A stretch of 64,000 nt of DNA from a virus: the IMG/VR virus record IMGVR_UViG_3300036792_000096, positions 1 to 64,000 of that record. The stretch is one strand, 5' to 3'. The notes below the pieces were generated by a model. It made no database searches. It was not told where the DNA came from and saw only the letters and a list, made by a program, of their open reading frames with translations. Below, in pieces: positions 11,870 through 44,183 of this stretch; position 1 is the stretch's first letter; the number at the start of each line of letters is the position of its first letter. A program made the translations under genes and the position numbers.

Positions 11870-11879
11870 TCCCAGAAAG

Positions 11880-11910
11880 CAAAGAGGCCCCGAGGGGGCG
11901 GAGCCTCTGA
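11880..11910. terminator. Possible terminator hairpin between convergent genes
   Basis: AGAGGC...GCCTCT stem; U-rich tail on the minus strand. Confidence 0.4.
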
Positions 11911-11995
11911 GCCGAAGCGGGGCGACGGTCAAGAGCGGGCTTGACGGTGTTCGCGCGTGGTCATGGTAGGTGACCCCGAGGGAGTTGGTCAAGGA

Positions 11996-12226: not shown

Positions 12227-12285
12227 AGTCCATAGTGTAGCGTTAATGTAGACAAATGGACATCCCTAGAAGTGAGGAGACATAG

Positions 12286-12510
12286 ATGGGCGTGGTGCTG
12301 ATCGAGGAGTACATCTGCAACTGCTGCGGCAAGCCAGTTAGCCCCGATGACGTGTGGATCGGGACGCTCGAAACACGTCGCCAAGGTTCCAAGGGCCGCC
12401 CAAACCTCGCCCCCAAGTTGGCTTTCCACCCTACCTGTGCCTTTGCGCTCATGGACAGCGCCGAGAAGGTCGATCGGCCACGGAAGGCAAAGGCGCAAGC
12501 CTCCAAGTAG
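12286..12510 (+). CDS. Small basic CxxC...HxxC protein
   Basis: SD GAGGAG; basic C-terminus. Confidence 0.55.
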   Translation: MGVVLIEEYICNCCGKPVSPDDVWIGTLETRRQGSKGRPNLAPKLAFHPTCAFALMDSAEKVDRPRKAKAQASK

Positions 12511-12511
12511 C

Positions 12512-13285
12512 TCAGACGCTCTGGTCCACGTCGTAGACAAGCTCGTGCCGATCCGCCGGGCGGACCTGTCGATAGACCTCCACCGGAACGTGATCCTGAT
12601 TCGCCATCTCCGTTGCGACCACGAGCAGCACCGGGACGCCCGAGGGGATCTGTAGCGCTTCGATCTCCTCCGGGGTGGGCATGCGGGCCGATATCTCGTC
12701 CCGACGCCACGTGAGGCGCAGTAGGTGCCTTTCCTCGAGAGCCCGGATCGTCCCCCGCTCCACGGGGACCGGCTCGGCGATCTCCGTCCCCTCCACGAGA
12801 GCCGCCGGGAACCACGAGTCGGCCAAGAACGACGGACGCCCGCCCTCCTCCATGACCCGCCGACGCACGATCACGGGATCCCCGACCTCCAGCCCCAGCC
12901 GCCAGGCGACATCCTCGGGGGCCGTGGTGCGCTCAATCGTCACCGACGTCATTCCCCCTGTCCGCCCCAGAGCATTGAGCTCGGCCTGGTAGACGCCCTG
13001 ATTCGAGGCGTCACGCACCGCACGGGACTGGATGACGCTGGCCCGGTAGGGCATGGGCCCCCGCTCGGCGACGAAGGTCCCCCGGGCGTGGACCGTGTGA
13101 ACAAGGCCCTCGGAGCGCAGTACCGCCAGAGCCATGCGGACCACGATCCGGGTGGCTTCGTACTCGGCCATCAGGTCCGCCTCGGTCCCGAGCAGGCCCC
13201 CGACCGGCACTTCGCCGGATGCGATTCTCTCTCGAAGCGTCCCTGCCAACTGCTGGTACATCGGAACGGCGGAATTGCGGTCCAT
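12512..13285 (-). CDS. GntR (HutC/UTRA) transcriptional regulator, KorSA-like
   Basis: PMYQQLAGTLRERI...TEADLMAEYEATRIVVRMALAVLRSEGLV...GTFV; UTRA with ARMPTPEE. Confidence 0.92.
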   Translation of the reverse strand: MDRNSAVPMYQQLAGTLRERIASGEVPVGGLLGTEADLMAEYEATRIVVRMALAVLRSEGLVHTVHARGTFVAERGPMPYRASVIQSRAVRDASNQGVYQAELNALGRTGGMTSVTIERTTAPEDVAWRLGLEVGDPVIVRRRVMEEGGRPSFLADSWFPAALVEGTEIAEPVPVERGTIRALEERHLLRLTWRRDEISARMPTPEEIEALQIPSGVPVLLVVATEMANQDHVPVEVYRQVRPADRHELVYDVDQSV

Positions 13286-13306
13286 GTCTGCCCCCTGACT
13301 TGTGAA

Positions 13307-13350
13307 ACCTTCCCGAAGGTCCTAGGATGGTGCGGACTCATACTAGTCCG
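13307..13350. promoter_or_regulatory. Palindromes in the GntR/transfer-operon divergent spacer (candidate operators)
   Basis: ACCTTC-CC-GAAGGT 13307-13320; CGGACT-CATACT-AGTCCG 13333-13350. Confidence 0.5.
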
Positions 13351-13382
13351 AACAGACGAGAACGGGAAGATAGGGGAGGGAA

Positions 13383-13787
13383 ATGACCGATCAGGAACGG
13401 GCAGAGAGCGTGATCCGGGCCGGCGTGCGTGTTGAGGCAGACGACTTCACATGCATCGGCTGCGGTGAGACCGTCACCATCCGAGTCCCCGGCCGGCCAG
13501 CGGGCGGTCACGGGACGCTCGTGACCGTGGACGATAACGGCAAGGCCGGCAGCCCCGTGGACGTCTGGGTCCACCGCAACCGCAAGTGCGTGGCAGCCGG
13601 GGTCCTCAAGGTGCTCGCCGCTTCCGCCGGGGACGCACAGGACGCCGAGCCCGAAGCGGAAGCCGAGACGCCTCCGGTTGCTCACATCCGTCGCACCGCC
13701 GCAGGAACGGGACGTCGGGGCAGTGACGAGGGGTCTGCCCCGGCAACGCCCGCCGAGCCGCAGCCCGAGACGGAGAAGGCGCAATGA
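13383..13787 (+). CDS. Hypothetical protein, first gene of the transfer operon
   Basis: SD GGGAGG; CxxC...HxxxxC. Confidence 0.6.
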   Translation: MTDQERAESVIRAGVRVEADDFTCIGCGETVTIRVPGRPAGGHGTLVTVDDNGKAGSPVDVWVHRNRKCVAAGVLKVLAASAGDAQDAEPEAEAETPPVAHIRRTAAGTGRRGSDEGSAPATPAEPQPETEKAQ

Positions 13788-14266
13788 CGACCCGCCCCCG
13801 CATCCTCGCCGGTTGGGCCTTTCCCACCTTCGACCGCTACGCCGTGGGTGAAGCCCTCTGGGGTGCTTTCCTTGCGACGTGGATAGGACTGCTGGTGTTC
13901 CGCTACATGCCCATTGAGGGCCTCGCCCTGATCTCGTGGTCATGGGCCGTCGTGCTGGTTGCTCTGTCTCGACCCGACAGGGAGCGACGGGTCTACGTGG
14001 GAACGATTCGGATCATGGTGGCGTCGATCCGGTCCCTTTTCGCCGGCATCCTCTTCACCGCCGTCAGCATGACCGCGAACCATCAGGCTATCGGTGCCCA
14101 CGGATGGGGAGTGTTCTGGAACCAAACGTTTCAGTGGGCAGACCTCGCTCTCGCTGTCATGTTCCTGCTCTGGACGATAAGGAAGCTGGCAAGGTCCATG
14201 GGTGGCTCCATCGTGCCCCGCCGAGTTAGGGCAGCGTATTGGCGCGACTCGAAGTGGGCTGAGTAG
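13784..14266 (+). CDS. Multi-pass membrane protein
   Basis: About four hydrophobic segments; ATGA overlap. Confidence 0.65.
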   Translation: MTTRPRILAGWAFPTFDRYAVGEALWGAFLATWIGLLVFRYMPIEGLALISWSWAVVLVALSRPDRERRVYVGTIRIMVASIRSLFAGILFTAVSMTANHQAIGAHGWGVFWNQTFQWADLALAVMFLLWTIRKLARSMGGSIVPRRVRAAYWRDSKWAE

Positions 14267-14272
14267 GCACCG

Positions 14273-14875
14273 ATGCGAAGCTTCGTGAGTTTCCGCCAGC
14301 CCTCAGCAGACCGCTGGGCGGAGATGAACGCCAAGCGCACGGCGTACTACGCCTCGCCGGAGTTCAAGGCGAAAGCCAAGAGCGCGGCGCTGATTTGGCG
14401 CTCGCTGGGCTGGGCGTTGGTAGCGGGCCCTCTCGTGATCCGGTTCTGGTTTCCACACGCCGTCTCAGGGATCGCCGCAACCGCCGTCCTGTCGTCGCTG
14501 GTTCAGTTGCTCGCAGCGTTCGGTGTCGCCTATGCCGCTCTGATCCGGGGGACTGCAATCAGCGCGCACCACAGGCTGCACCGGGTGCCCAACCATCTGT
14601 TCGGCTACTCCGGACGCTTCCTTGGCCGGCTCTACAACGAGCACTGGTACGACCTGATCCCGGGCTCGGAAGGCGTGAACAGCGCCGAGTACCACATCCG
14701 CAAGCACGTCCCCGGCCTCAAGGGCAGCAAGGCGCACGATTACTTCATCCGCACCGTCATCGCAGCGCTTCTCTGTCGGTTCTGGTGGGTGGGCGTGGCT
14801 TTCGCGGGGGCGTGTTGGTGGTTCGGGTGGAGTCCCGTCGTCGCGTGGCTGGGCATGGTCGGACACAGGATCTAA
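14273..14875 (+). CDS. Membrane protein
   Basis: Two to three hydrophobic segments. Confidence 0.65.
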   Translation: MRSFVSFRQPSADRWAEMNAKRTAYYASPEFKAKAKSAALIWRSLGWALVAGPLVIRFWFPHAVSGIAATAVLSSLVQLLAAFGVAYAALIRGTAISAHHRLHRVPNHLFGYSGRFLGRLYNEHWYDLIPGSEGVNSAEYHIRKHVPGLKGSKAHDYFIRTVIAALLCRFWWVGVAFAGACWWFGWSPVVAWLGMVGHRI

Positions 14876-14908
14876 GGCCGGAAGCCTTGACGAAAGAAGG
14901 GAGTTGAC

Positions 14909-15223
14909 ATGATGCACGTAGCGAGTGCGGGACACATCCTGCTTGCTGGCTGCGATGCCGCGACGTGGATCAACGCGAAGGTCACCGAGGGCTGGGGCAC
15001 CCTTGGCAACGTTCTCAAGATCGCCGCGGCGATCTATCTGCTTTACGTGCTGATCTTCCACCGCACCCTCAAGGCGTTCGTCTTGGCGCTTCTCCTGACC
15101 GGCGTTGCCTACTGGAGCGTCATCGGTGGCGGAGTCAATTGGGTCGGGGGTCTGGTGGGTGGCGAGACCAACAGCGCCCAGGTGTCGAACCTGACTGCTC
15201 CGGCGTCCGGTGGCGGGTGTTGA
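14909..15223 (+). CDS. Small two-TM conjugation protein (TcpD/VirB2-like)
   Basis: Two TM helices; position immediately before TcpE-like and VirB4 genes. Confidence 0.55.
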   Translation: MMHVASAGHILLAGCDAATWINAKVTEGWGTLGNVLKIAAAIYLLYVLIFHRTLKAFVLALLLTGVAYWSVIGGGVNWVGGLVGGETNSAQVSNLTAPASGGGC

Positions 15224-15702
15224 GCACCGAGCAGCGGTACATCCGCTGTACTCCCTTCACCGCCGTCAACCGGCTCCAGCCCCATATCGGCAAGGTGTGG
15301 GGGTGGGACCGCTGGCCTCTGCCCATGACGGTGTTCCAACTCTCGGCCTTCGTGGGGACCGCGGTGGGCCTGCTCCTCGGCTGGCATGCGTGGGGACGCT
15401 TCGGCATGCTCAACTTCCCCATCTACGCGGGAGCCGTGGCGGGGTCTAAGTACGCTACCCGCCGGATTCAGGTAGGTGGCCGGGCCATCTGGGCAGCGGC
15501 TCTCGGGCTGGCAGGTTCCTACACCGGGAAGCCTCGCATGGACGGCCGCAAGTTCAAGGCCCGCCAACTGACTCGCTACAAGGAACGGAGGATGCTGCTG
15601 GTGCCCGACCCGCAGTGGCGCCGGTACCCGCTCGCCTTTGTCACGACCCACGGGCACCGCCCCCGAGTCCGGTTCTGCTACTGGGTAAAGGCGAAGCCGT
15701 GA
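15220..15702 (+). CDS. TcpE/VirB3-like conjugation membrane protein
   Basis: TTG start overlapping the previous TGA; IGKVWGW...PMTVFQL, two TMs, RRIQVGGR; directly upstream of VirB4. Confidence 0.65.
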   Translation: MSTEQRYIRCTPFTAVNRLQPHIGKVWGWDRWPLPMTVFQLSAFVGTAVGLLLGWHAWGRFGMLNFPIYAGAVAGSKYATRRIQVGGRAIWAAALGLAGSYTGKPRMDGRKFKARQLTRYKERRMLLVPDPQWRRYPLAFVTTHGHRPRVRFCYWVKAKP

Positions 15703-18296
15703 GGCCGCTCAGGCAGTACCTCCCCGAATACAAGGCCAAGGGCGCCGTCCCAGCCCGCGCGGCCGTTGGAAACCTCGTGTGGACGCACGGCGGAAGCGTG
15801 CTGGGGATCTGGCGGGTTGAGCCTGTCGCCTACAAGTACCTCTCTCACGCTGGCAAGCTTGCCTATCACGAGTCGGTCCGTTCGACCCTGCTGGCGCTCC
15901 CTCCTGAGTCCACGATCCTGTCCGTCTGCCCTCCCCTGGACCATGTGGGGACGGCCATGGCGGTCCTGAAGGGCCACGAGAACCGGGCATCGTGGCAGCA
16001 GGTAGCAGCCGAGTCCGTGGACCTCCTGCACGAGTGGGACCCGTTCGAGCGGTGGTTCTACGTCGTCGCCCACCTCGGCTCCACGGGCGGGTTCGTGGGG
16101 GAGATCAAAGAGCAGATGACGTCGGTTCTGCGCCGGCCCTTCGGGCGCCCCATGGAGCACGACGTACGGGCCAAGGCCCGCCAGGCGCAGAAGCTGGAGG
16201 CGGACCTCCGCCGGTCGGGTCGCACCTTCATCCCCGTGGGTGCCGGCGAAGCGCGGTGGATCTATGCCCGGGCACTGCGCCGTGGCATCCGGGACGTGCC
16301 CCTACTTGGGGCTGACCGGCGGGAGATCCAGACGCCGGGCTTTGCCAGCGTCGGCGGCGTAGTGACTCTCGAGGGCGGCGACAGGAAGGACTACGGGCGT
16401 GGGCTGCGCCGACCCTATCTGCGGGTGGCCGAGCCTTCGGGAGACGGTCCCGAGGCGGTCGGGTACCAGTGCCATATCGCTCTCGCCGACATGCCCGAGG
16501 GAACCTTCCCGGATGACTACGAGATTCTCTACGCCCTTGACGACTTCGGGTTCCCCGTGGACTGGGCCATCCAGATGCATCGCACGACCAACGCCCTGTC
16601 CCGCCAGCACCTTGCCAAGAAGTCCAAGGCGCTTGTGCAGGAGTTGGGGGGCGAGGGCCGCGCCAAGGAGATCGAGGACACGGGCCAAGTCCCGGCGGAG
16701 CTTCAGGAGGCATGGGACGCCCTACTTGCTCATCGGGAGCGCCTTATCGCCCTGAAGTCCGAGGGCAATGTCCGAGCCACCATCGCTCTCACCGTGTGGG
16801 GCCGGGACCTCCGCACCGCACAAGCTCGAGCAGACGCGGTGGTGGAAGCGCTGGCGCCGAACGAGTGGGGACTGGCTCGGCCCCCAGGCGGTCAGTCGGG
16901 CCTGCTGGAGTTGGGCATGCCCGGCGGCCGTACCGCCGTCGTGGCTTACAACTACGAACAGACCCTTTTGCCGACTGACATCGCCGCTCTCGGCCTCTTC
17001 GCAGGCTCGGACATCGGCGACGACACGGGGTTTCTCGTGGGGGCCCGCATGGACTGCAAGACGAACCGGCCTGTCCTGTGGGAGCCCGCGGGCGGGTTGC
17101 ACATGGGCCAGTCGTCGTCAGCAGTCTTCATCGGAGTCCCCGGCTCGGGTAAGAGCCTGAGTGCCAAGCGGTCGATGCACGAGGGTGTTCTCGCCCGAGG
17201 CGGGCGGGGAATCTCCATTGACCGGACTCCGCAGGGAGAGTGGGTGCGCTTCGCCGACGCCATGAGGGAGGAGGGCTTCTCTACCTCCGTCGTCACAACT
17301 GACGAGGCGGCGCGCAGTTCCTTCGATCCCTTCCGAGTGTTCGCCGATGCGAAGGACCAGAAAAAGTACGCCCTCGGCCTCTACCTGCTGGTAACCCAGA
17401 CTCCCTCGTCCAACCTCTCGGGAATCTGCCTCAGCGACGCGGTAGAGGAGGTATCCCAGCGTGACGCCTCGGAGCGGTCATCCCCGGCCGTGCTGGGTGT
17501 CCTCGAGCAGATGTTTGCGGAGGGCCGGCATGGGGCGGAGGAGGCGTTCTACAAGTTGCGCGCCTTCGTCCGAGGCCCGTATGGGCGCATGGCCTTCGAT
17601 CCCGACTCAACCCCGGCCAACCTCACGGCTGACTTCGTGGTGTTCCACGTCCCGGATCTTGAGCTCCCCGACCGGGAGACCATGCGAGACGGGCAACTCG
17701 CATCGCAACTCCTCCCCGAGCAACTGGGGGCGCTGGGGGTCTTCTACCTCATCGCCGCCGCCGGCCGGGCAATCATCCTTGCCGACCGGGACCGGTTCTC
17801 CGTCCTGTGCGTCGATGAGGCGTGGGTGCTCACGTCGACCGTGCAGGGCGTGGACCTGCTGGAAACGACGGAGCGGGACGGGCGCAAGCGGTACGCCGCC
17901 GTGTGGCTCATCACGCAGCACCCAGACGACGTGTCGGACCCGAAGCTCTCTGCCTTCCTCATCACGCGCTTCGTGTACGCGCAGGGACAGGGAGCGGGCC
18001 CCGGAGCTTTGGCGTTCCTCAACCTCGAGCCAACCCCCGCACTGGTGGAGAAGGTGCAGGACGGGCTGTCCCGGAACGACAGGCTCGACGCCGACCCCGA
18101 GCCGGCTCGGTGCATGATGCTCGACGCCCGTCGCCGGGTGGGCGAGATCGTGTGGAACCCGCCGTCCGAACGCCTCATGCGGGCCTACGAGACCAACCAA
18201 CGGCGGCTGAGTGCCTACGGTCCCGCACCTGTGGACGCCGGAACCAATGGGCACGCTGAGCCCGCCGAACTCGTGGACTACGAGGTAACCCGGTGA
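15699..18296 (+). CDS. virB4: VirB4/TcpF-like conjugative ATPase
   Basis: Walker A GVPGSGKS, Walker B CVDEAW, RDGRKRYAAVWLITQ; ~865 aa. Confidence 0.88.
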   Translation: MRPLRQYLPEYKAKGAVPARAAVGNLVWTHGGSVLGIWRVEPVAYKYLSHAGKLAYHESVRSTLLALPPESTILSVCPPLDHVGTAMAVLKGHENRASWQQVAAESVDLLHEWDPFERWFYVVAHLGSTGGFVGEIKEQMTSVLRRPFGRPMEHDVRAKARQAQKLEADLRRSGRTFIPVGAGEARWIYARALRRGIRDVPLLGADRREIQTPGFASVGGVVTLEGGDRKDYGRGLRRPYLRVAEPSGDGPEAVGYQCHIALADMPEGTFPDDYEILYALDDFGFPVDWAIQMHRTTNALSRQHLAKKSKALVQELGGEGRAKEIEDTGQVPAELQEAWDALLAHRERLIALKSEGNVRATIALTVWGRDLRTAQARADAVVEALAPNEWGLARPPGGQSGLLELGMPGGRTAVVAYNYEQTLLPTDIAALGLFAGSDIGDDTGFLVGARMDCKTNRPVLWEPAGGLHMGQSSSAVFIGVPGSGKSLSAKRSMHEGVLARGGRGISIDRTPQGEWVRFADAMREEGFSTSVVTTDEAARSSFDPFRVFADAKDQKKYALGLYLLVTQTPSSNLSGICLSDAVEEVSQRDASERSSPAVLGVLEQMFAEGRHGAEEAFYKLRAFVRGPYGRMAFDPDSTPANLTADFVVFHVPDLELPDRETMRDGQLASQLLPEQLGALGVFYLIAAAGRAIILADRDRFSVLCVDEAWVLTSTVQGVDLLETTERDGRKRYAAVWLITQHPDDVSDPKLSAFLITRFVYAQGQGAGPGALAFLNLEPTPALVEKVQDGLSRNDRLDADPEPARCMMLDARRRVGEIVWNPPSERLMRAYETNQRRLSAYGPAPVDAGTNGHAEPAELVDYEVTR

Positions 18297-20299
18297 GGCG
18301 CCTCGCGGCAGTGCTTATCACCGCGGGAGGCTTGGCCCTCATCCCCGCTGCTGCCAGCGCGCAGACCGTTCCCACTCCCACGGTAACGACCACGCCGACG
18401 CCCGGGCCGACGGGCGTTCCGCAGATCCCGGCAAAGAAGGTGTGCAACGGGGTTCCCCAGCCGGTTCTGGGGTTCATTTACGATCCCAAGTACCTCGTGC
18501 CAGGTGCCAACGGTGGGTTCTCGCTCGAGGATGAGATGCACGCCTGCTCGCTCGAGGGCCAGCAGCAGGTTCACGACCAAGCCAAGGGCTTCATGAATGC
18601 AATGGTTCCCGACAACACCGGCTCGGCCATCCCCCTCAGTGCCTACGACATCGGCTTCGACGGCTCGATAACGCAGGGTCCGGCGCTCGTTATCGGGATC
18701 GCGACGGCTATCCTCTTCGCTGTAGCGGTGTGGATCGTGGCCGGCGGACTGACGCTGGTGACGTGGGCGGTGTCCTTCCCCTTCGTTTCAATCGGTTCCG
18801 CCGTGGCCGACGATGTCTCGAAGGCGATGCTGACGAAGGTGATCGGGCCTATCGGGCTCGGACATCTGGCACTCGGGATCTGCGGTGTGGCGGTCGCCTT
18901 TCATCTGTTGCGTGAGCGAGCGAACCGGGCGGTCATCGAAGTGGCGACGTGCATGGTGGCACTCGTGTTCGCCTCTTTCCTGCTGACGAATCCCGGCGCC
19001 CTTCTCCGCTCGGGCTTCCGGGTTGAGCAGCAACTAATGGCAACGCTGCTCACCATGGGCCAACCCCCGGCTCAGACCAGCGTCACGGTCCAGAGCGGTA
19101 CTGCCTCGACCGATGCCGCTTTGGCTCCTCTCAAGAAATCCGTGCTGTCTGCCGACGTGCAGAACCCCTACGACCTCATCGACTGGGGAGCGGTACTCAC
19201 GGGGCGCTGTGCCGCCATCCGAGACGAGGCGCTTGCACTTGGGCCGTGGGGTGACGCCTCGGCTCCCCGGGACACCATGGCGAAGCTGCCCGAGTGCCAA
19301 GCCGCCGCAACGTGGAACGGGAACTCTTCGTTGTCCAAGCTGGCCGGTGGCGGGTTCTCTATCTTCAACTCCCTCTCCACCTTCGCCCTGCTGGCTGTGA
19401 TGGCTCTCGCCCTGCTGGTGAGCGAGTTGGGGGCCTGCTTCCTCATGGCCCTCTCACCTCTGGCCATCGTCGCCGCCTGTGTCCCCAAGGTCCGCTCTGG
19501 CTTCGCCCGCTGGGCTGAGGGCATACTGAGGGTGATCCTGGTCACGATCGTGGCTGCGTTCTTCCTCTCCCTGTGGTCACTGTTCATGGTGGCGCTGCTG
19601 GACAAACTTCCCCCGGGCACTCCTCTGCTGCTGCGGTTCTTCGTCCAAGCCTGTGTCACCACCATGACCATCATCGCCTTTGTCTCGGCCCTCCGTAGGC
19701 TCCCCCGGGTGGCTCACAACGTGGTCAAGAGCATGTCGAAGGACGAGGGCTACCTCTCCCCGGCCAAGTCACACGGTGGCACGCTCGGCCTCGGCCTCGG
19801 CTCGCTGGGCATGGCCGAGGCGCTGGGCTACCGGGACAAGTTGTCCAGCCTCACGCCCAACCGGAACCGGCGCAAGTTGGTAGGGGCGATCAAGGGCCTC
19901 AAGGACGGACCAAAGGAACTCGACGCTGGAGAGGAATTTGATCCCGCAGGTGTGGGGTTCCCGCCCTGGACTCCGGGCACCGACATGGAGTTGAGCGGCG
20001 GGCCCTACGGAGACAACAAGTGGCGTTCGGATAGGGTTACTGCCGAACGGGTGCCACCGCGTACGGATAACTGGACGACTCCCGAAGTCCTTCGAGAGGC
20101 TACCTTGCGTCTCAGCAACCCCCTCGCACGGCCCGTGATCCGGCTGCCCGAGAGCAACCCCCGAAAGGTCGTGGTGCCCCTCAGTGTGGCTAATGCCGCG
20201 CCTTCCCGTAGAGCGCTCCCGCCCGCCGGTTCCACCTCGGACGCACCTGTCCGGGCATGGGAAACCCGTCGGCGCGACTACGAGATCCCGGAGGAGTAA
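18293..20299 (+). CDS. VirB6/TrbL/TcpH-like polytopic membrane protein
   Basis: Signal peptide, extracellular domain, about 7-8 TMs, disordered C-terminus; follows VirB4. Confidence 0.75.
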   Translation: MRRLAAVLITAGGLALIPAAASAQTVPTPTVTTTPTPGPTGVPQIPAKKVCNGVPQPVLGFIYDPKYLVPGANGGFSLEDEMHACSLEGQQQVHDQAKGFMNAMVPDNTGSAIPLSAYDIGFDGSITQGPALVIGIATAILFAVAVWIVAGGLTLVTWAVSFPFVSIGSAVADDVSKAMLTKVIGPIGLGHLALGICGVAVAFHLLRERANRAVIEVATCMVALVFASFLLTNPGALLRSGFRVEQQLMATLLTMGQPPAQTSVTVQSGTASTDAALAPLKKSVLSADVQNPYDLIDWGAVLTGRCAAIRDEALALGPWGDASAPRDTMAKLPECQAAATWNGNSSLSKLAGGGFSIFNSLSTFALLAVMALALLVSELGACFLMALSPLAIVAACVPKVRSGFARWAEGILRVILVTIVAAFFLSLWSLFMVALLDKLPPGTPLLLRFFVQACVTTMTIIAFVSALRRLPRVAHNVVKSMSKDEGYLSPAKSHGGTLGLGLGSLGMAEALGYRDKLSSLTPNRNRRKLVGAIKGLKDGPKELDAGEEFDPAGVGFPPWTPGTDMELSGGPYGDNKWRSDRVTAERVPPRTDNWTTPEVLREATLRLSNPLARPVIRLPESNPRKVVVPLSVANAAPSRRALPPAGSTSDAPVRAWETRRRDYEIPEE

Positions 20300-20916
20300 T
20301 GCCCTCCGCCCTGAGACGCCGATGGGTCAAGATCCTGCTTGCCTCCGGGCTAGGTTCAACGCTCGTTGTGGTAGCCGTGGTCGGGTTCGGATTCATGGCC
20401 GTGATGACCCTGCTGGGAGCCTCGCGTGTGGGTGGAACGCTGGCGCAAACCACGTCGTCCTTCGGTGCCCCCGCCGTGGTCCCCAAGGGCTCGGGAGCGA
20501 CGGCGGGACAGGAAGAGTTCGCTGGCGCGCTGGGGCTGTGCTGGCCCGCGGATCCGTACGTGCGGCTGGCGTGGACTGTGGCCGAAGGTGGGGGAGTGAA
20601 CCCCGGCCAGCCCCCGAATAACTTTCTGTTCCTGACCGCCGTGACTGGCGGTTTCCAGTCCTTTGACTCCCCTGAGTCCGCAGCGCAGGCCGTGTGTCAG
20701 ACCTTGCAGGCCCCCCAGTACGCGGGAGTCCTGTCCTCGGTCGGCCTCGCCCCCGTCCTGCAACTGATCGCCGTGGCGCAGTCTCCGTGGGATGGAGGCT
20801 ACGTGGCGTGGGGTGATCCGGCCGGGCACTATGGAGGAGACGGACGCAATCTGGTAGGGGCCTACTACCGCCTGCTTGGGAACACGAACTGCCTCTACCC
20901 GACACAACCATGCTGA
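20299..20916 (+). CDS. Membrane-anchored lysozyme-like cell-wall hydrolase (VirB1 role)
   Basis: N-terminal TM; AEGG...NNFL...FQSFDSPE...Y...AQSPW. Confidence 0.6.
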   Translation: MPSALRRRWVKILLASGLGSTLVVVAVVGFGFMAVMTLLGASRVGGTLAQTTSSFGAPAVVPKGSGATAGQEEFAGALGLCWPADPYVRLAWTVAEGGGVNPGQPPNNFLFLTAVTGGFQSFDSPESAAQAVCQTLQAPQYAGVLSSVGLAPVLQLIAVAQSPWDGGYVAWGDPAGHYGGDGRNLVGAYYRLLGNTNCLYPTQPC

Positions 20917-20929
20917 GAGGGGAGCCGAG

Positions 20930-21232
20930 ATGAAGCCAGTGGTGTACGTGCCGAGGTCGGTTGTGAGCAAGGGAGTCAAGTTCGCTCTCTGGCTGGGCGC
21001 TTGGGGTCTCTGCTCCGCCAACCACATCCCGTCAGGCTGGTTCTTGGGCGGAACCGCCGTCGTGGTTTTCCTCGTGCGCTGGTCCCGCCGCCGGCCACCG
21101 GTTCTCCCGACGGAATGGGCCCGCAGAGACATGAGCCCGGAGGAGGTCCGAGCGCTACTCCAAACGGTGGCCGCTACGGAGCCGGACGAGCCCGAGCCTC
21201 CTCAGCAGATCCAAGCCCGACGGGTTGACTAG
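20930..21232 (+). CDS. Small two-TM membrane protein
   Basis: SD GAGGGGAG; two hydrophobic segments. Confidence 0.6.
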   Translation: MKPVVYVPRSVVSKGVKFALWLGAWGLCSANHIPSGWFLGGTAVVVFLVRWSRRRPPVLPTEWARRDMSPEEVRALLQTVAATEPDEPEPPQQIQARRVD

Positions 21233-21850
21233 GTGACCCAGCGCTACCGCACCATCGTCGCCGACCCGCCGTGGCCTATCAAAGACACGGGGGCTTGTTC
21301 TAGCCCCCGTGTCGGAGAGCGTAAGGGCCGGTGGGATTCAGGCAAAGGGACCGTAGGTAAGAGCAGCCGCGTGCCCTATTCAGTGATGAGCCTGACCGAG
21401 ATTGCTGAGTTGCCCGTGGCTGACCTCGCCGAGCCGGACGCTCATCTCTACCTGTGGACCTTTGGACCGTTTATTCCGAAGGCGTATGAGTTGGTGAAGG
21501 GGTGGGGGTTTAAACCGTCTGCTCTGCTGACTTGGTGCAAACCCCCGATGGGACTCGGGTTCGGAGGCGCCTATGTCCCCACAACGGAGCATGTTCTATT
21601 CGCACGCCGGGGACGACTGGCTGCCCTGCGCCGCTGGCACTCCACGTGGTTCGAGTGGCCGCGGCCGTACCTAACTCAAGGCCCCGCGCACTCAGCCAAA
21701 CCCGAAGCCTTCCTAGACCTAGTCGAAACGGTCTCCCCCGGACCGTACCTGGAACTTTTCGCGAGGAGGAACCGCCTCGGCTGGTCAACTTGGGGCAACG
21801 AGTGTCTTGAGCACGTGGAGATGCCGACAACTGGATGTGGCGACAAGTAG
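21233..21850 (+). CDS. MT-A70 family adenine methyltransferase
   Basis: YRTIVADPPW, HLYLW, WCK...GFG, HSAKP, YLELFAR...GWSTWGNE. Confidence 0.93.
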   Translation: MTQRYRTIVADPPWPIKDTGACSSPRVGERKGRWDSGKGTVGKSSRVPYSVMSLTEIAELPVADLAEPDAHLYLWTFGPFIPKAYELVKGWGFKPSALLTWCKPPMGLGFGGAYVPTTEHVLFARRGRLAALRRWHSTWFEWPRPYLTQGPAHSAKPEAFLDLVETVSPGPYLELFARRNRLGWSTWGNECLEHVEMPTTGCGDK

Positions 21851-21889
21851 ATTTCGGCAGGGCTCTAGAGAGAACGGTGACATAGAACG

Positions 21890-24286
21890 ATGGAACAGTC
21901 AGAGCAGGTAGATAGGGAAATCCCTGATGCGGCCGTTGCGGACTGCTCCCCCCCTGTCCCCTCCTCCGTCGGGTCCTTCGGTTCGCAAGCACCCCCCTAC
22001 ACGGGGGGTGAGAGTACACCGCTCCAGACCGCTGAGCCCAAGAGGAAGACCGTCGAGCTCGCCCCCTCAAGATCCTTCAACCCGAACCCCGAAGAGGTAC
22101 TCCGTTGGTCAATCGCTCTCGCAAGATCCACAAGAAGGTTTCACCCGAAGGACTTCATCCGGATCCACCTCCGTGCAGACAATGGATACCTCTCCTACCT
22201 GCTCTCCGCTCCCTCAGAAGTTCTCCCGCGGCTCCTCACCTTCCTACCCGCGGGGCTGACCGTCCGCGAGGCCGCTGTTCCTCCATCGCCAGCCGCTCTT
22301 GCAGTCTCGCGAGCAGTGGTTTCGCTACCGCGAAACCCTCGAGTGGTGCCCGCGGATCCCGACGTTCTGGGGGACTTCGCGCGTGCGCTCGCGGAGGCAC
22401 GCGAAGGTGAACTAGCGGAGGTCATCCTCGACCTCGTCGCGGCAGACAAGCGCCCTCGCGAGCGCCAGTTTTCATCGCGCGAGTGGGATCCCGCGAAGCT
22501 CCTCACCGCGGCGCGAACCGCTGCCGCGCGGGACTTCCTCGCGAGGCCCCAGCCGACACGTTCGAACCCACGCGAGGAAGCCGAGAATCACCCTCCTACG
22601 GAGGAGATTCTCTTCCGCGTCGCGGTCCACGCACACGCCTTTTCCCCCGACGCCCAGCGCGCTCGCGACCTTGCTCTTGGGCTCGCGCAGCCCTTCCACG
22701 CGTGGGGACCCGGAGGCTCAGTCAAGGTGTCTACACGCTCTCCCGCCGCGGGGTGGCTCCACGAGGGACACCGCCCTCGTGGAGCACGGTCTCAGGTGGT
22801 TGCTCAGACGGCGCTGGCCTGTCTGCTGCTGCCCCCAACGGAGTCCTGCACGGCCATGAACGTAAGACGCTCTGGGGCCGCTGCGCCGCCTCCGCGGGGG
22901 CTACTGCCGCTGGGTCCCGGTACGCGCCCCTTGGGTCACGTCGCGGGCTACTCCGGGCCCGTCGGGATCCGCTGGGATGAGTTCTTCTTCGGCGGACTCT
23001 CCGGGCAGACGCGGTGGGGCAAGAGCTACTTTGAGATCGGGACCTTCCTCTCTTGGGTGCTCGAGGCTCCCTACGGGCTCGGACTGGGCGGGTGCTACGT
23101 TGACCCCACACGCGAGGCGCTGGGAACGCTCGAGCCGTTCATGACCTCCATCGCCCCCCGTTGCCTTGTCGTGGACCTGGGGCGGAATTGGGATGACCTG
23201 TACCTGCCCTGCTGGAACCTGCTGGATGCTCGCGGCACAAAGGACCAGGAGGCCAACGAGCGGGTCGGCGCCATGACGTCGGGGTTCCTCGCTGCAACGA
23301 AATGGAAGCCGGACTTCGCTTCCCGGGCAACGGCCATCATCACCAACACGGCCAACAGTCTGATCGCCTTCGACCGTGCGCTGCCGGCCGACGCCCCCAC
23401 GCCCACAATCTTTCAGATCCACACACTCATCGAAAACGAGGAGTGGCGCAAGAAGATCCTCCCCTGTCTCCCCCAGCACCTTCGTCAGTGGTGGGAGGAT
23501 TCCTTCCCCCGACTTCCGAAGGACGCCGTGCTGACCGTGACCAACCTGATCTCACGGCTCCGCAACGATGTCCCCACCGCAGCCTTCCTCGGGGGACGCA
23601 ACACGCTGAACCTGCGCGAGGCCATGGACCGCCGCCAGGTGGTGCTGTTCTCCAACGCCCGGAAGGGGGACGGACGTGACGCCCTGCCGACATCGCTGTT
23701 CGTGCGTGGTCTGCTCATGGCCGGCCACTCCCGCCAGGACACGCCCGAGGTCCGGCGCAGGGAGGAGTGCCCCCGCTTCCACATCGTCTACGACGAGGCC
23801 CCCACCTACAACGGCCCCGACCTCGCCTCCGGCATGCAGGAGCTTGGGAAGTACGGGATCGTGTCGGACGTGCTCTCGCAGGGACCTTCCAAGCTCAAGG
23901 TCGGCGGGACGTGGGACGCTCTTGCCACCAACAGCTCCACGCTCACCACGACCTCCGTGGGCCACGACGACGCGGTCATGATCGCCAAGGAGTGGCAGGG
24001 CGCCTCAGCGTCCGACATCATGGACACGGAGCGTTACACCTTCCTAACCTCCGTCGTCCACGAGGGACGGCACAGCCCCGCCTTTCACTTCCGAGCCATC
24101 GACCCCCACGACCTCTACCCGTACGAGGCCGGCGTGCTCGAACGCTCAATCGCCAAGGATCGTCGGTATCGGCTCGCAAGCGAGACCGTCGCCGATCTGG
24201 AGACGCTGGACGAACGGCTGGTGAAAGCGTGGATGCGGGGGCAGAACTCGGGCCCCCGGCCGATAGCGGTGGACGTGGAGTCATGA
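21890..24286 (+). CDS. Type IV coupling protein-like (VirD4/TrwB-family) ATPase
   Basis: Walker A-like SGQTRWGKS, YVDP, Walker B IVYDEA, ELGKYG...LSQ; lies upstream of the relaxase. Confidence 0.75.
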   Translation: MEQSEQVDREIPDAAVADCSPPVPSSVGSFGSQAPPYTGGESTPLQTAEPKRKTVELAPSRSFNPNPEEVLRWSIALARSTRRFHPKDFIRIHLRADNGYLSYLLSAPSEVLPRLLTFLPAGLTVREAAVPPSPAALAVSRAVVSLPRNPRVVPADPDVLGDFARALAEAREGELAEVILDLVAADKRPRERQFSSREWDPAKLLTAARTAAARDFLARPQPTRSNPREEAENHPPTEEILFRVAVHAHAFSPDAQRARDLALGLAQPFHAWGPGGSVKVSTRSPAAGWLHEGHRPRGARSQVVAQTALACLLLPPTESCTAMNVRRSGAAAPPPRGLLPLGPGTRPLGHVAGYSGPVGIRWDEFFFGGLSGQTRWGKSYFEIGTFLSWVLEAPYGLGLGGCYVDPTREALGTLEPFMTSIAPRCLVVDLGRNWDDLYLPCWNLLDARGTKDQEANERVGAMTSGFLAATKWKPDFASRATAIITNTANSLIAFDRALPADAPTPTIFQIHTLIENEEWRKKILPCLPQHLRQWWEDSFPRLPKDAVLTVTNLISRLRNDVPTAAFLGGRNTLNLREAMDRRQVVLFSNARKGDGRDALPTSLFVRGLLMAGHSRQDTPEVRRREECPRFHIVYDEAPTYNGPDLASGMQELGKYGIVSDVLSQGPSKLKVGGTWDALATNSSTLTTTSVGHDDAVMIAKEWQGASASDIMDTERYTFLTSVVHEGRHSPAFHFRAIDPHDLYPYEAGVLERSIAKDRRYRLASETVADLETLDERLVKAWMRGQNSGPRPIAVDVES

Positions 24287-25002
24287 CGCCCTATTACTCC
24301 GACGAGTGGACCACTCTGTATCACGGAGACTGCCTAGATGTCATCGCCGATGTGCCCATGCTCTTGGACGCCGTAATTACGGACCCCCCTTTCTCGTCAG
24401 GGACGCGCCATGAGGCCGGGAAGCCAAGCAGCGGGGCCATGCTCCGAGCGGGGCGGTTCAGTGAACGCCCGCTGGATCTCGATCAGATGACTACCACCGG
24501 GTTTGTATGGCTTCTTAGGGCTGTGGCGCGAGGGGTGTACTCGGTACTGGTGGAGGGTGGGTCGTTCCTCTCTTTTATTGACTGGCGTCAGTGGCCCAAT
24601 CTTGTGGGAGCACTAGAGACGGCTAACCTCCGCGTGCAGGGAATGGTGGTTTGGGACAAAGGTCACTTCGGACTAGGGAACGGGTTCCGATCCCAACACG
24701 AGTTGATCTGCCACGCCTCGAAGGGTGTGCCAGCTATCTACAACAAGGGTATTGGCAACGTCATTCGCCATTCCCGAGAAGAGCCCGAGTTCCACCCGAG
24801 CCCCAAGCCGGTAGGGCTCATGGAACGCCTCATCACCACCGTGAGCCCGCGGGGAGGAACGATTCTGGATCCATTCGTCGGGGGCGGCACGACTCTCGTC
24901 GCCTGCAAGATGGCGGGCCGACTTGGGATCGGAGTGGAGAGCGATGAGGGGTACTGCGAGGTAGCCGCGTCCCGTCTTGCACAGGAAGTGCTGGCACTCT
25001 GA
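24283..25002 (+). CDS. DNA N6-adenine/N4-cytosine methyltransferase (beta class)
   Basis: TLYHGDC, TDPPF, HPSPKP, ILDPFVGGGTT. Confidence 0.92.
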   Translation: MTPYYSDEWTTLYHGDCLDVIADVPMLLDAVITDPPFSSGTRHEAGKPSSGAMLRAGRFSERPLDLDQMTTTGFVWLLRAVARGVYSVLVEGGSFLSFIDWRQWPNLVGALETANLRVQGMVVWDKGHFGLGNGFRSQHELICHASKGVPAIYNKGIGNVIRHSREEPEFHPSPKPVGLMERLITTVSPRGGTILDPFVGGGTTLVACKMAGRLGIGVESDEGYCEVAASRLAQEVLAL

Positions 25003-25905
25003 ATGCAGCCCCTGCCCCTCCCTCTCGCCGAGCACGCGCTTCTGGAGGTCATCGGCTGGCACCGCTACCTCACCCGCCGCCAGTGCTGGCTCTACGAACG
25101 ACCTCAGGACGCCAACAGCCGCCCCACCTACGCCCTGCTCGGGCGCCTCGCCAAGCGGGGGCTGGTGGGCTCAGGCCAGGTCGATGGCCGGGGCGTGGCG
25201 GTCTACTTCCTCACCCCCGCCGGCATCAAGGCACTCCCGCCAGCCCTCCGCAGGGACTACCAGCCCTCAGCCGAGCAAGCCGGCTTCCGCTACAGGCACA
25301 CGTGGCAGGTCAACGAGGCGGGCCTCGCCTTCGTCCAGGCCGCCCGGGAGCGGGGTGACGAGTGCGGCCCACTTGCCCTCGAGCACGAACGCCGTCTCCG
25401 GGACACGGGAGACAGCGCCTCTCTCCTCATCGCCGACGGCATCCTCCAGTACGCCCTACAGGACTCGAAGACCTACGACCCGCGCTGGGCCATCCTCGAG
25501 GTGGACCGCCGCACGGCCCCCGGCCGCATCTGTGACCGCCTCCGGGCCTACGCCACCATCAAGCGCAAGAAGGTCTTGTGGTCCAAGGTGCTCCCCGACG
25601 GCTGGCCCCCGGTCCTGTTCGTCATCTCCGCCGACCCGAGCTCAGGCCCCCGAGTGGGAGAGAAGCACTGGGCAGGCGACCCCAGGGCATCCTCGGCTCG
25701 TACCCGCCGGCTGACGGCCTACGTCGCAGACCGGATGCGCGACGAATCCCTGCTGCGGGGGCTGGAGGTGTTCTTCGCCCCCCTGCCAGCACTGTTGGCC
25801 GACGGCCCCTTCGCCCCCATCTGGCACCGCCCGGGCCACGCCGAGCCGCTGGACTGGCTGGGGCGCCCGGTCATGTCCGCCGTGAGCGAAGGCGGGGCAG
25901 CGTGA
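25003..25905 (+). CDS. Replication-relaxation family relaxase (MOB-L type)
   Basis: N-terminal wHTH, YFLTPAG, HTWQVNE, ADGIL, LEVDRRT, RLRAYA. Confidence 0.85.
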   Translation: MQPLPLPLAEHALLEVIGWHRYLTRRQCWLYERPQDANSRPTYALLGRLAKRGLVGSGQVDGRGVAVYFLTPAGIKALPPALRRDYQPSAEQAGFRYRHTWQVNEAGLAFVQAARERGDECGPLALEHERRLRDTGDSASLLIADGILQYALQDSKTYDPRWAILEVDRRTAPGRICDRLRAYATIKRKKVLWSKVLPDGWPPVLFVISADPSSGPRVGEKHWAGDPRASSARTRRLTAYVADRMRDESLLRGLEVFFAPLPALLADGPFAPIWHRPGHAEPLDWLGRPVMSAVSEGGAA

Positions 25906-25942
25906 CTCGCCGAACTACTCGCCGGTAGTTCCGCCTACCCTC

Positions 25943-25990
25943 TTGCGCTGGTACTGAATAGGGTGCATACTTGTACTCAATCAGTACAAG
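25943..25990 (+). promoter_or_regulatory. SigA-type promoter with overlapping palindromic operator
   Basis: TTGCGC 25943-25948, 17 nt, CATACT 25966-25971; CTTGTACT-N5-AGTACAAG 25970-25990. Confidence 0.65.
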
Positions 25991-26005
25991 CCGAGAGGAG
26001 ACGAG

Positions 26006-41033: not shown

Positions 41034-41530
41034 CCACTCCCACTCGGACGCCCCTCGCCGTCGTCGGGACAACCAAAGGACAGGACAAATCAGGCAACAC
41101 GTCCGCGGCCTCTCGTCGCCAGATTGAAGCTGCCGAGAAGCAGCGACAAGCCGTAGCCCTTCGCCACCACGGGGCAACCTTCCAGCAGATCGCAGACCAA
41201 CTTGGCTACACCAACCCGTCGGCCGCCCGCAAAGCCTTCCTCAAGGCCCTCGAGCGCTGGGGTGTGGAGGATGTCACCGACCTGCGCGCCGCCGAGGTGG
41301 CCCGGCTGGACTCCTACCTCCTTGTCGTCGCCACGAAGGTCAAGGCGGGTGAACTGAAGGCCGTTGAGACCGCACTCAAGATCAGCGAGCGCCGTGCGAA
41401 ACTCTTGGGTCTAGACCAGCCTACAAAGGTGGTCATCACCGAGGATCTCTTGGAGGCCGAGCGTGACAAGCTCCGTGAGCGGGTCGCCACGCTCCGTGTC
41501 GTCGGAGGAGCGTCGTCTAGCGCTCCTTGA
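41030..41530 (+). CDS. terS: Terminase small subunit-like HTH protein
   Basis: GATFQQIADQLGY...ERRAKLLGLD; directly upstream of terL. Confidence 0.75.
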   Translation: MTTPTRTPLAVVGTTKGQDKSGNTSAASRRQIEAAEKQRQAVALRHHGATFQQIADQLGYTNPSAARKAFLKALERWGVEDVTDLRAAEVARLDSYLLVVATKVKAGELKAVETALKISERRAKLLGLDQPTKVVITEDLLEAERDKLRERVATLRVVGGASSSAP

Positions 41531-42995
41531 CGAGATCGCAGCGCTTCAGGCCGAGGAGCGGGCGCTACTGGCCGAAGCGGAGGTCACGAGGTTCTCCGGA
41601 TACCGGGACCACCCTGTGGAGTTCGTCCGGGAGGTTCTCCGGGAGGAGATGTGGAGCAAGCAGGAAGAAATCCTCCGCTCCGTCTACCGGGATCGCCGAA
41701 CCATCGTCAGTGCCTGTTTCGCTTCAGGGAAGACGTGGATAGCGGCCCGCCTCCTCGCGCAGTGGATCTCGACCGATCCTGGTGCGATCGCCATCACGAC
41801 CGCCTCCGTCGGCCGGCAGGTAGCAGGACAGCTCTGGGGCGAGGTCCGCAACCTCTGGCGACGAGGAGTGACGCTGCCGGGCCAACTGGACCCCGCGCCC
41901 GGTGTCTCGCTTCCTGGGGATCTGCTCCCGAAGGCCCCTGAATGGATGGTGACGCCGGGCAGGAACTTCGCCATGGGCTTCAGCACGAACGACCCCAACC
42001 GCTTCTCTGGCTGGCACGGGGGGCGTGTCCTCGTGATCCTGGACGAGGCCGAGGGTATTGACGATGACCTGTGGGACATCATGGAAGGCCAACTCTCCAC
42101 AGGTGACACGGCCGTCCTGGCGCTCGGGAACCCCGACCCGGAGGGCATCCTCGGTGGCTTCCAGCACGCAGCATCTTCTCCGCTCTGGCACCACATCACG
42201 ATCAGCGCCTTCGACACGCCGAACCTGATCGCCGGCCGGGACGACGTGGCTCCCTACCTCGTGACCCGTCGCTGGGTGGAGGAACGCCGGCAGGAGTGGG
42301 GCGAGGACGACCCTCGGTGGATCACGAAGGTGCTCGGCCAGTTCGTGGAGGGCTCCGCGGCCAAGCACGTCATTCCTCTGTCGTGGTTCGAGCGGGCCGT
42401 GGACCGGCCCGGCGTGACGGCGGTGACTGAGAAGCCAGTGACGGGTTTGGACATAGCCCGGTTCGGCACCGACGACAGCGCCATTGTGATCCGTCAGGGT
42501 CCCCTCGTGCTCCACATGGAGCGCAAACACGGGTTCTCAGGCCCGGAGGTGGGGGGCTGGGCAATCGCCCGTATGCGCCAGCACGGCTCGGCAGTGGTGA
42601 ACGGTGACAGCGGAGGGCTAGGCGGGCCGGTGCTGGATTTCATCCGTGAGACGCCGGGGATCCGCGTGCAGGACATCAATGCCGGCTCGAGGGCGGACGA
42701 CAACGAGCGGTTCGTGCGCAAGCGGGACGAGCTCTGGTGGGGGGCTCGGGAACGCTTTGAGACCGACCGGATCGTCCTGCCGAGGAAGTTGGGTTCGGAG
42801 GTGGAGATCCTCAAGGGCCAAGTGACTCCGGTCCGCTACTCGTACCGGGTAGACGGCCGGATTGAGGTTGAGTCGAAGGACTCCATGGCGAAGCGGGGCC
42901 TTCCCTCGCCCGACCTCGCCGACGCTCTCTGTCTCGCCTTCATCGCCCCGTGGACGGCCCGCACCAACCTCCGCGACCTCATGGGCGGAGGCTAA
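41463..42995 (+). CDS. terL: Terminase large subunit
   Basis: ASGKTW, VILDEA, LGNP, GLDIARFGTDDS, SPDLADA. Confidence 0.95.
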   Translation: MTSSVSGSPRSVSSEERRLALLDEIAALQAEERALLAEAEVTRFSGYRDHPVEFVREVLREEMWSKQEEILRSVYRDRRTIVSACFASGKTWIAARLLAQWISTDPGAIAITTASVGRQVAGQLWGEVRNLWRRGVTLPGQLDPAPGVSLPGDLLPKAPEWMVTPGRNFAMGFSTNDPNRFSGWHGGRVLVILDEAEGIDDDLWDIMEGQLSTGDTAVLALGNPDPEGILGGFQHAASSPLWHHITISAFDTPNLIAGRDDVAPYLVTRRWVEERRQEWGEDDPRWITKVLGQFVEGSAAKHVIPLSWFERAVDRPGVTAVTEKPVTGLDIARFGTDDSAIVIRQGPLVLHMERKHGFSGPEVGGWAIARMRQHGSAVVNGDSGGLGGPVLDFIRETPGIRVQDINAGSRADDNERFVRKRDELWWGARERFETDRIVLPRKLGSEVEILKGQVTPVRYSYRVDGRIEVESKDSMAKRGLPSPDLADALCLAFIAPWTARTNLRDLMGGG

Positions 42996-43925: not shown

Positions 43926-44183
43926 ATGGCCGAGGCAGAGAACGGCGCTGGCCCCCTCAGCCTCTCGGCAGCCGAGGCGCTGGGGCTCCTGAGTCTCCAT
44001 TCCAAGGTTCCCGTGGACAGCATGGACCCGGAGGCGCTGGGGGCGGTAGGGCGGATGCACGCCGAGCTCTGGCTTATCATGGAGGACGCCCGTACCTTGC
44101 AGGCCGGCGCCGATGAGGCGACAGGCAATGGCGCTACGCCGAAGCGCAAGCCCCGCTCATCCGTCCTGACGCCTCGCACGTGA
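43926..44183 (+). CDS. Hypothetical protein
   Basis: GTGA overlap with the portal start. Confidence 0.5.
   Translation: MAEAENGAGPLSLSAAEALGLLSLHSKVPVDSMDPEALGAVGRMHAELWLIMEDARTLQAGADEATGNGATPKRKPRSSVLTPRT

Follow-up and report, generated by a model that had tools for sequence, protein, structure and literature searches.

Can a single replicon be both a tailed phage and a conjugative element? Horizontal gene transfer is taken to have two distinct vehicles, phages and conjugative elements, a divide that a mating apparatus under selection in a phage would blur, and the question is raised by a 64,000-nucleotide stretch of viral DNA (the window) that represents bases 1–64,000, the left two thirds, of the ~90.6-kb genome of an uncultured phage (IMG/VR record IMGVR_UViG_3300036792_000096, 90,657 bp; hereafter G000). 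Window positions 12512–25905 hold a module in which a GntR/UTRA gene is divergent from 14 plus-strand genes, running from 13383 to 25905 with refined starts. Among the products of this operon are five small proteins, a VirB4 ATPase, a VirB6-like protein, a putative hydrolase, a 100-amino acid (aa) protein, a coupling protein, a relaxase, and two methyltransferases (Table 1). The best explanation, in which we place moderate confidence, is that the phage lineage acquired a minimal conjugation system of the monoderm type (MPF-FA/FATA-like) by an ancient capture and kept it under selection as a resident part of its genome, which would give the phage spread by mating as well as by virions.

The carrier has a Caudoviricetes gene set, with terminase, portal, HK97-type capsid, tail, tape measure, and lysin all on one replicon. 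An initial annotation of this DNA, made from the sequence alone, had placed virion genes (terL, portal, capsid) on the same contig as the module. PHROG matches confirm these genes and add a head-maturation protease in the window and, to its right, a major tail protein, a head-tail adaptor, minor tail proteins, and an endolysin; a tape-measure-sized protein of 1287 aa also lies beyond the window. Homologues of the capsid protein occur in 789 cultured actinophage records, the top one in Arthrobacter phage Mimi (41.6%) and the next nearest in Gordonia and Microbacterium phages, and neither the module nor the structural arm had a nucleotide-level match by megablast among 50,697 phage records. GC (guanine plus cytosine) content is even across the genome (0.62–0.69; overall 65%), the window yielded no tRNA genes, and IMG/VR lists the topology as linear with a CheckV completeness estimate of 99%. 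By its gene content, G000 is a real, complete uncultured tailed soil phage of a high-GC Gram-positive host, with an actinophage-type capsid.

Assembly, boundaries, composition, and relatives all point to residence of the module in this phage genome, as the initial annotation had proposed. In the Logan assembly, a separate assembly of the probable source run from reads that are probably the same as those of the IMG record, one 90,539-bp contig spans positions 9000–28900 with zero differences and crosses both junctions, where no assembly break is therefore present. Window base 9000 corresponds to base 34,458 of that contig, an offset of 25,458 bp relative to the IMG record, and this offset together with the near-equal lengths implies that the record ends join, in a circular or permuted map. 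Run X2 holds the stretch in short fragments only. Tetranucleotide composition of the module correlates with that of the rest of the genome at r = 0.985, within the range for equal-sized windows. Hidden Markov models (HMMs) for tyrosine and serine recombinases (Phage_integrase, Recombinase, Resolvase) found nothing in G000, and 12-mers common to both flanks occur at shuffled-control level with no att-like repeats, in agreement with the initial observation that an integrase and flanking direct repeats are lacking. The integrase and bounding attachment (att) sites by which an ICE (integrative and conjugative element) is recognized are thus absent from G000.

Five elements from different samples (G000, G001, G003, G004, and the soil contig L004) carry the module beside phage genes at 30–60% amino acid identity, and the relatives without it that had been named as a refuting finding were not encountered. 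L004 (34,971 bp) contains the whole module in order at 39–64% amino acid identity, flanked by homologues of G000 phage genes from 8, 35, 48, and 88 kb. G001 (98,873 bp, closed by a 127-bp terminal repeat, CheckV 100%) shares terL (64% identical), the capsid gene (65%), and a syntenic structural arm with G000, and holds the module at 77.6–90.9 kb in equal circular order and at 29–39% identity. G003, a partial 51-kb record with a 63% identical terL, also carries the module. In G004 (L022–L026; 93,037 bp), the module is accompanied by a tail-fibre-like protein (72%), a tape-measure segment, a lysin, and early genes common with G000, and the terminase and portal belong to other families (phrog_38 and phrog_2662), so that the module travels with more than one head type. 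G004 thus plainly illustrates the swapping of head modules among members of this group. A scan of IMG/VR with the single VirB4 protein gave nothing, whereas alignment-based scans found relatives; those with capsid and terL alignments returned G001, G003, and one 38-kb contig from the G003 metagenome. Both relatives inspected from the capsid and terL scans (G001 and G003) carry the module, and none was shown to be without it.

Fragments ~90% identical to G000 from another soil study show 126 differences, of which the best-supported 40 were used. Of these, 31 are synonymous and 29 fall at third codon positions (p = 5e-7); by gene, synonymous changes make up 10 of the 14 listed differences in the 161-aa gene and 21 of the 26 listed in the VirB6-like gene. 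Along with invariant catalytic motifs in VirB4, the coupling protein, and the relaxase, these counts are consistent with purifying selection on the module. An artefact or passenger, either an assembly chimera of phage and ICE or a recent ICE or integrative and mobilizable element (IME) decaying inside the phage, might be suspected from the metagenome source, from a Logan contig probably built from the same reads as the IMG record, and from a truncated serine-recombinase remnant in G001, 1.2 kb beyond its relaxase gene. The linkage is, however, equal in five independent assemblies from different samples, one of them closed by terminal repeats; reading frames and catalytic residues are all intact at 30–60% divergence; and the excess of synonymous changes, the uniform composition, and the lack of att repeats speak against such an origin as well. 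Misassembly or recent ICE insertion is largely refuted by the relatives, intact frames, and composition, and we consider it very improbable; the module is very probably resident in the phage and not an assembly artefact. The G001 remnant itself (L035; 83 codons, 92111–92362, minus strand) consists of a catalytic N-terminus followed by a stop and lost similarity, a weak trace of what may have been an integrative ancestor of the module.

The operon encodes recognizable parts of a mating channel. The initial identification of VirB4 is confirmed by the AAA_10 profile and by a top NCBIfam match to TcpF, and the Walker A (GVPGSGKS) and Walker B (DEAW) motifs are both invariant over 30 homologues. 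The VirB6-like gene likewise stands: its product exceeds the cut-off of the TrbL profile, has a predicted signal peptide and six transmembrane (TM) helices, and matches NCBIfam CD3337/EF1877 at E = 3e-14, with a score short of that family's cut-off. Of the five small proteins encoded before VirB4, four contain 1–4 predicted TM helices. The TcpD-like and TcpE-like labels first given to proteins of this group are unsupported by HMMs, and what is present are small TM proteins at the right position. The 161-aa protein sits where VirB3 or TcpE would be, and its GTG start agrees with the start of the L004 orthologue. Neither the 134-aa nor the 160-aa protein has a family match in Pfam, PHROG, or NCBIfam; a homologue of the former, 47% identical, is located upstream of the GntR gene in L004. 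For the proposed cell-wall hydrolase, the fold of the 219-aa protein matches Glucosaminidase/GH73 clusters at a TM-score of 0.55–0.6 (atlas structure), and E110 of an AExGG motif and an SPW motif are invariant in four orthologues, but it has no Pfam match and the assignment is a lead only. The equivalent slot in G001 holds a Pfam-confirmed Peptidase_M23, and the occurrence of two unrelated wall hydrolases in one slot, one of them putative, argues that wall opening is needed by the module.

The DNA-processing half of the operon comprises a coupling protein, a relaxase, and two methyltransferases. The 798-aa ATPase has an N-terminal DUF8128-like domain and an ATPase domain with Walker A (GQTRWGKS, at residue 372) and Walker B (YDEAP) motifs, and lacks a TM helix; residues G377, K378, D635, and E636 are invariant in 21 homologues. 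An AlphaFold (AF2) model from 21 homologues (predicted local distance difference test, pLDDT, 78.9) retrieves Cagbeta (8dol), TrwK (a VirB4), TrwB, and DotL as the top Foldseek matches in the PDB, with a TM-score by target of up to 0.65 for TrwB. The atlas feature score to TrwB_AAD_bind/T4SS-DNA_transf clusters is 0.98, and by structure the protein resembles DUF8128+TraG-D_C proteins of monoderm phyla (TM-score ~0.7, atlas); NCBIfam and a phmmer search of PDB sequences returned no match. The coupling-protein-like ATPase of the initial annotation is thus upheld by structure and by its Walker motifs, but not by Pfam profiles, and we accept it as a VirD4-class coupling protein by predicted fold.

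The replication-relaxation gene is verified by its match to PF13814 (Replic_Relax), and H99, N104, D119, E129, D145, E166, and R169 are invariant over seven copies from phages and metagenome-assembled genomes (MAGs). PF13814 is the family named MobC in CONJscan (PMC5357655) and has a PD-(D/E)XK fold (PMC3424549); its product here is a candidate relaxase of a recognized MOB class, MOB_C. MobC relaxases are those paired with VirD4-type coupling proteins in IMEs (PMC5357655), a pairing that matches the adjacency in G000, and each of the five elements keeps the relaxase gene coupled and adjacent to that of the coupling protein. Neither operon methyltransferase (MT-A70 or N6_N4) appeared in the initial annotation. 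The ATG of the N6/N4 gene overlaps the stop codon of the coupling-protein gene (ATGA), and in L004, too, a gene for an N6_N4 methyltransferase lies between those of the coupling protein and the relaxase; the MT-A70 gene is not found at the equivalent position in L004, and its G001 homologue is located elsewhere. Just 3′ of the relaxase gene lies a gene for a protein with a ProQ/FinO C-terminal-like RNA-chaperone domain (26346–26834, plus strand), and ~5 kb beyond it an SSB gene (31065–31568, minus strand), a pairing that recalls, only by analogy, the leading region of conjugative plasmids.

At most junctions of the operon a stop codon overlaps or adjoins the following start codon, which bears out its description as co-oriented and translationally coupled, and the divergent GntR/UTRA regulator is confirmed by both of its Pfam domains. 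The regulator gene stands alone on the minus strand, converging with the upstream phage genes, and has orthologues at the equivalent place in L004 (44% identity) and G001 (33%). Regulators of the HutC subfamily bind small metabolites. Two palindromes in the divergent control region, TCCTAGGA (13320–13327) and GGACT-N6-AGTCC (13334–13349), could be GntR operators; a promoter scan gave no more matches than chance. The best terminator-like site of the 11.5–27.5 kb region is a strong GC-rich hairpin with a T-run on the minus strand, at 11883–11908 between plus-strand early genes and ~600 bp left of the module.

Table 1 Features of the conjugation module and virion genes in the window.
Feature	Position	Strand	Basis or homologues
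GntR/HutC-type regulator (winged helix-turn-helix + UTRA)	12512..13285	-	Pfam GntR 50.6 bits, UTRA 87.4 bits
Divergent control region, 97 bp	13286..13382	.	Two palindromes read in the sequence
First operon gene, 134-aa soluble protein, CxxC...C (Zn-ribbon-like)	13383..13787	+	Translation
160-aa membrane protein, 3–4 TM helices	13784..14266	+	Hydropathy; start overlaps preceding stop
200-aa membrane protein, 3–4 TM helices	14273..14875	+	Homologues in L004 (39%), G003/L016 (37%)
104-aa two-TM protein	14909..15223	+	Homologues in L004 and L005 (40–44%)
161-aa small membrane protein, coupled to VirB4	15217..15702	+	51–55% identical in L004, L005, L006
VirB4/TcpF-family conjugation ATPase, 865 aa	15699..18296	+	AAA_10 143.6 bits, E 1e-41
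VirB6/TrbL-like polytopic channel protein	18293..20299	+	TrbL 33.5 bits, cut-off 25.9
Candidate membrane-anchored GH73-like peptidoglycan hydrolase, 219 aa	20257..20916	+	Atlas structure; start could be later
100-aa protein with hydrophobic segment	20930..21232	+	Homologue in L004 (38%)
MT-A70 family DNA methyltransferase	21233..21850	+	Pfam 59.9 bits
Type IV coupling protein (VirD4/TrwB class by fold), 798 aa	21890..24286	+	Atlas, AlphaFold model, Foldseek
N6/N4 DNA methyltransferase (N6_N4_Mtase)	24283..25002	+	Pfam 93 bits
MOB_C-type relaxase candidate (winged helix-turn-helix + PD-(D/E)XK Replic_Relax)	25003..25905	+	Pfam 43.3 bits, cut-off 25.3
Intergenic region, 100 bp, 3′ of relaxase gene	25906..26005	.	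Inverted repeats 25909–25934, 25947–25991
Terminase large subunit (terL)	41463..42995	+	phrog_2, E 1e-25; 63–64% identical in G001 and G003
Portal protein	44180..46759	+	phrog_776, E 7e-53
Head-maturation protein (protease)	48609-51341		PHROG
Major capsid (hexamer) protein	52699..54570	+	phrog_777, E 3e-69

A FastTree phylogeny of 60 VirB4 homologues was built and midpoint-rooted, most of its rows being of no known context. The five phage-borne copies fall into one clade (Shimodaira–Hasegawa-like support 98), and two MAG copies lie far outside it. Four metagenomic sequences without labels belong to this clade as well, and three of them are close partners of phage copies. The topology is in keeping with one capture and subsequent divergence. 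Actinomycetota MAGs supply the nearest named VirB4 relatives, and 30–32% identical homologues of the coupling protein and relaxase are found on the chromosomes of MAGs from Solirubrobacterales and other uncultured actinobacteria; these loci encode VirB4, methyltransferase(s) of the cytosine, Dcm type, coupling protein, and relaxase in equal order at 25–32% identity. The source of the capture would be an ICE-like element of uncultured Actinomycetota. The G000 capsid and terL proteins have no match in those MAG genomes, and no capsid homologue was found in 401 genomes of the class of one MAG with a distant module copy (G005), which thus offers no host or prophage lead. When VirB4 was compared by tblastn with the 50,697 phage records, only three Firmicute records were matched (~24% identity), with conjugative-transposon genes in or beside prophage records, and no actinophage. 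A 52-kb IMG/VR record of 73% GC (G002, L008; IMGVR_UViG_3300049007_000012) encodes a 34% identical VirB4 at its contig end (9908–12622); it has no other gene common with G000, and its VirB4 is outside the phage clade.

How such a module might work can be proposed from its parts. The GntR/HutC repressor would hold the 14-gene operon off until a small-molecule cue appears. The MOB_C relaxase would then nick a yet-unmapped origin of transfer (oriT), and the soluble VirD4-type coupling protein would pass the single strand, bound to the relaxase, into a channel of VirB4, small membrane proteins, and the VirB6-like protein, with the anchored hydrolase opening the peptidoglycan. The two operon methyltransferases would mark the phage DNA before exit, and the pre-methylated DNA would enter a touching cell without a phage receptor, so that the element could move both as virions and by mating. 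Conjugative self-transfer of this kind is plausible, at close to an even chance on the genes present. The stronger proposition, that the lineage is a true conjugative phage in which one replicon combines tailed virions, its own relaxase and type IV secretion system (T4SS) channel, and a metabolite-sensing GntR switch, we advance tentatively, as a possibility of somewhat under even probability.

The transferred substrate bears on this reading. The 100-bp region 3′ of the relaxase gene is a speculative oriT candidate that might instead be a terminator or operator; the assignment is speculative because its inverted repeats are not conserved in relatives. A working T4SS with a substrate other than the phage genome would accord with the failure to find an oriT on the phage, with a conserved and intact module, which fits any selected function, and with methyltransferases embedded in the operon; it could mobilize host islands or co-resident plasmids, deliver relaxase-linked proteins to neighbouring cells so as to ready them for infection, or serve exclusion or competition. 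A relaxase and coupling protein that are adjacent, coupled, and co-conserved in five elements are nevertheless a signature of self-transfer, and the module has no conserved cargo gene of effector type. We regard this alternative, in all of its forms, as unlikely.

A second alternative concerns the state in which mating would occur. G001 encodes a ParA-like AAA_31 protein (L029/L030; 75506–75883, plus strand) just upstream of the GntR/T4SS module, which may hint at plasmid-like maintenance; no such gene was found in G000, G003, or G004. The elements could be conjugative phage-plasmids, that is, conjugative plasmids or extrachromosomal prophages that make virions and mate in a carrier state and not during lytic infection. 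This would suit a map that is circular or permuted, the G001 ParA-like gene (75.5 kb), a repressor-controlled operon of the kind expected in a quiescent state, and the lack of any recombinase gene in G000, with only the truncated resolvase remnant in G001. It is weakened by a G000 genome that lacks ParA and in which no immunity repressor was identified and no plasmid Rep recognized, Rep genes not having been searched systematically, and by the absence of a capsid homologue from the 401 genomes searched in the class of one MAG with a distant module copy. On balance a conjugative phage-plasmid seems a minority possibility, with a low probability that is still well above that of an artefact.

Several results weigh against a captured, resident conjugation system that moves the phage by mating. 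In the channel, neither G000 nor G001 matches the Pfam TcpE model, a VirB8-like layout is seen in no protein, and the VirB8/TcpC-like part and an adhesin go unrecognized in the module; the NCBIfam matches of VirB4 and VirB6 are far under the equivalog cut-offs. The coupling protein failed sequence-profile membership, having no Pfam match, TrwB_AAD_bind included. Comparison of inverted repeats and intergenic regions among the relatives gave no common oriT motif. A full integrase is absent from both G000 and G001, and ParA is absent from G000, so that a stable state for mating is not evident, and no immunity repressor was identified in G000. The search of sequencing runs listed no RNA data. Finally, the Logan test is independent of the assembler and not of the sample, because its reads are probably shared with the IMG record.

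Other features of the phage genome lie outside the module. Directly 3′ of the major capsid gene, a run of glycosyltransferase genes (55697–62553, plus strand; Glyco_trans_1_2, GT47/RXYLT1-like, and Glyco_trans_1_4) is kept in G001 at 55–67% identity and probably serves virion glycosylation. The head-maturation gene is coupled to a DHH phosphoesterase gene (47851–48732, plus strand; phrog_4771, E 3e-76), which has homologues at other genome positions in L004 and G001. The early region encodes a DUF5131 protein (8323–9267; 240 bits) and a phage metallopeptidase (10630–11133; 110 bits), both on the plus strand and both kept in G001, the former also in L004 and G004. DNA methyltransferases are unusually many in G000 (533–3202, 21233–21850, 24283–25002, 35546–36313, and 39153–41033), comprising a Dcm, an MT-A70, two stand-alone N6_N4 enzymes, and a fusion of a ParB-nuclease domain with N6_N4, a set that suggests heavy investment against restriction. 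The first of them (plus strand), a cytosine-5 enzyme of 889 aa, is split by an intein, with an NCBIfam C-terminal splicing region at residues 448–469 and dcm motifs on either side.

If the proposed reading is true, mating would offer the phage a receptor-independent route into new hosts, including entry into cells that lack the receptor, and would alter how host range, phage-plasmid classifiers, and models of gene flow are read. The module would also provide a compact actinobacterial T4SS for study, in which a GntR switch and a MOB_C relaxase go together with a coupling protein that is soluble. Since at least five related genomes carry it, one of them with a different head module, the idea is directly testable given a host or a clone.

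According to a 2025 review, neither a phage-plasmid nor a prophage that is conjugative is known, and a survey of phage-plasmids that screened phages with CONJscan describes no conjugative group (PMC7969092). Full-text literature searches returned no report of such a system fixed in tailed-phage genomes. The module is a known machine in a carrier unreported in the searched literature, and its component families are all known. The initial annotation had likened the gene order to Gram-positive ICE and plasmid transfer regions, and the closest systems are indeed the MPF-FA/FATA machines and the ICE-like loci of Actinomycetota. The MPF-FA/FATA systems (the pCW3 Tcp locus with TcpF, TcpH, TcpG, and TcpA; the Tn916/ICEBs1/CTn-type CD1110 and CD3337 families) resemble the module in having, in one co-oriented operon, a VirB4/TcpF, a VirB6-like TcpH/CD3337 protein, a hydrolase (putative in the phage), small membrane proteins preceding VirB4, a coupling ATPase (predicted in the phage), and a relaxase. 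They differ in using an FtsK-like TcpA, whereas the predicted coupling protein here is of the VirD4/TrwB class with no TM helix and a DUF8128-like N-domain, and in using MOB_T or TcpM relaxases, whereas the candidate here is MOB_C; the phage module, for its part, gave no match to TcpE or to a TcpC/VirB8-like protein, includes two methyltransferase genes, and has a tailed-phage carrier. The ICE-like loci of Solirubrobacterales MAGs (L018–L020) share gene order and relaxase active-site residues, but at only 25–32% identity, without the G000 capsid or terL, and with a VirB4 outside the phage clade.

Streptococcal IMEs of class 8 combine a VirD4 coupling protein, a MobC/PF13814 relaxase, and a serine integrase (PMC5357655). 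The phage module resembles them in the VirD4-type coupling protein beside a PF13814 relaxase and, in G001, in the serine-recombinase remnant past the relaxase gene; unlike IMEs, which borrow a mating channel, it brings a VirB4, a VirB6, and a putative hydrolase of its own, and a recombinase is lacking in G000. Phage-plasmids (P1, N15, SSU5, and extrachromosomal cluster A actinophages) likewise join a virion set to plasmid-type functions, with a circular map and no integrase, but the plasmid-type function here is a T4SS with a relaxase, and G000 lacks ParA. Some actinomycete conjugative elements are controlled by GntR-family repressors of the Kor/TraR type, such as pIJ101 KorA and pSAM2 KorSA, and a divergent GntR-family repressor beside the transfer genes is common to those elements and to the phage module. 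Unlike pIJ101 and pSAM2, which transfer double-stranded DNA with a single FtsK-like TraB, the module appears to specify a relaxase-dependent T4SS.

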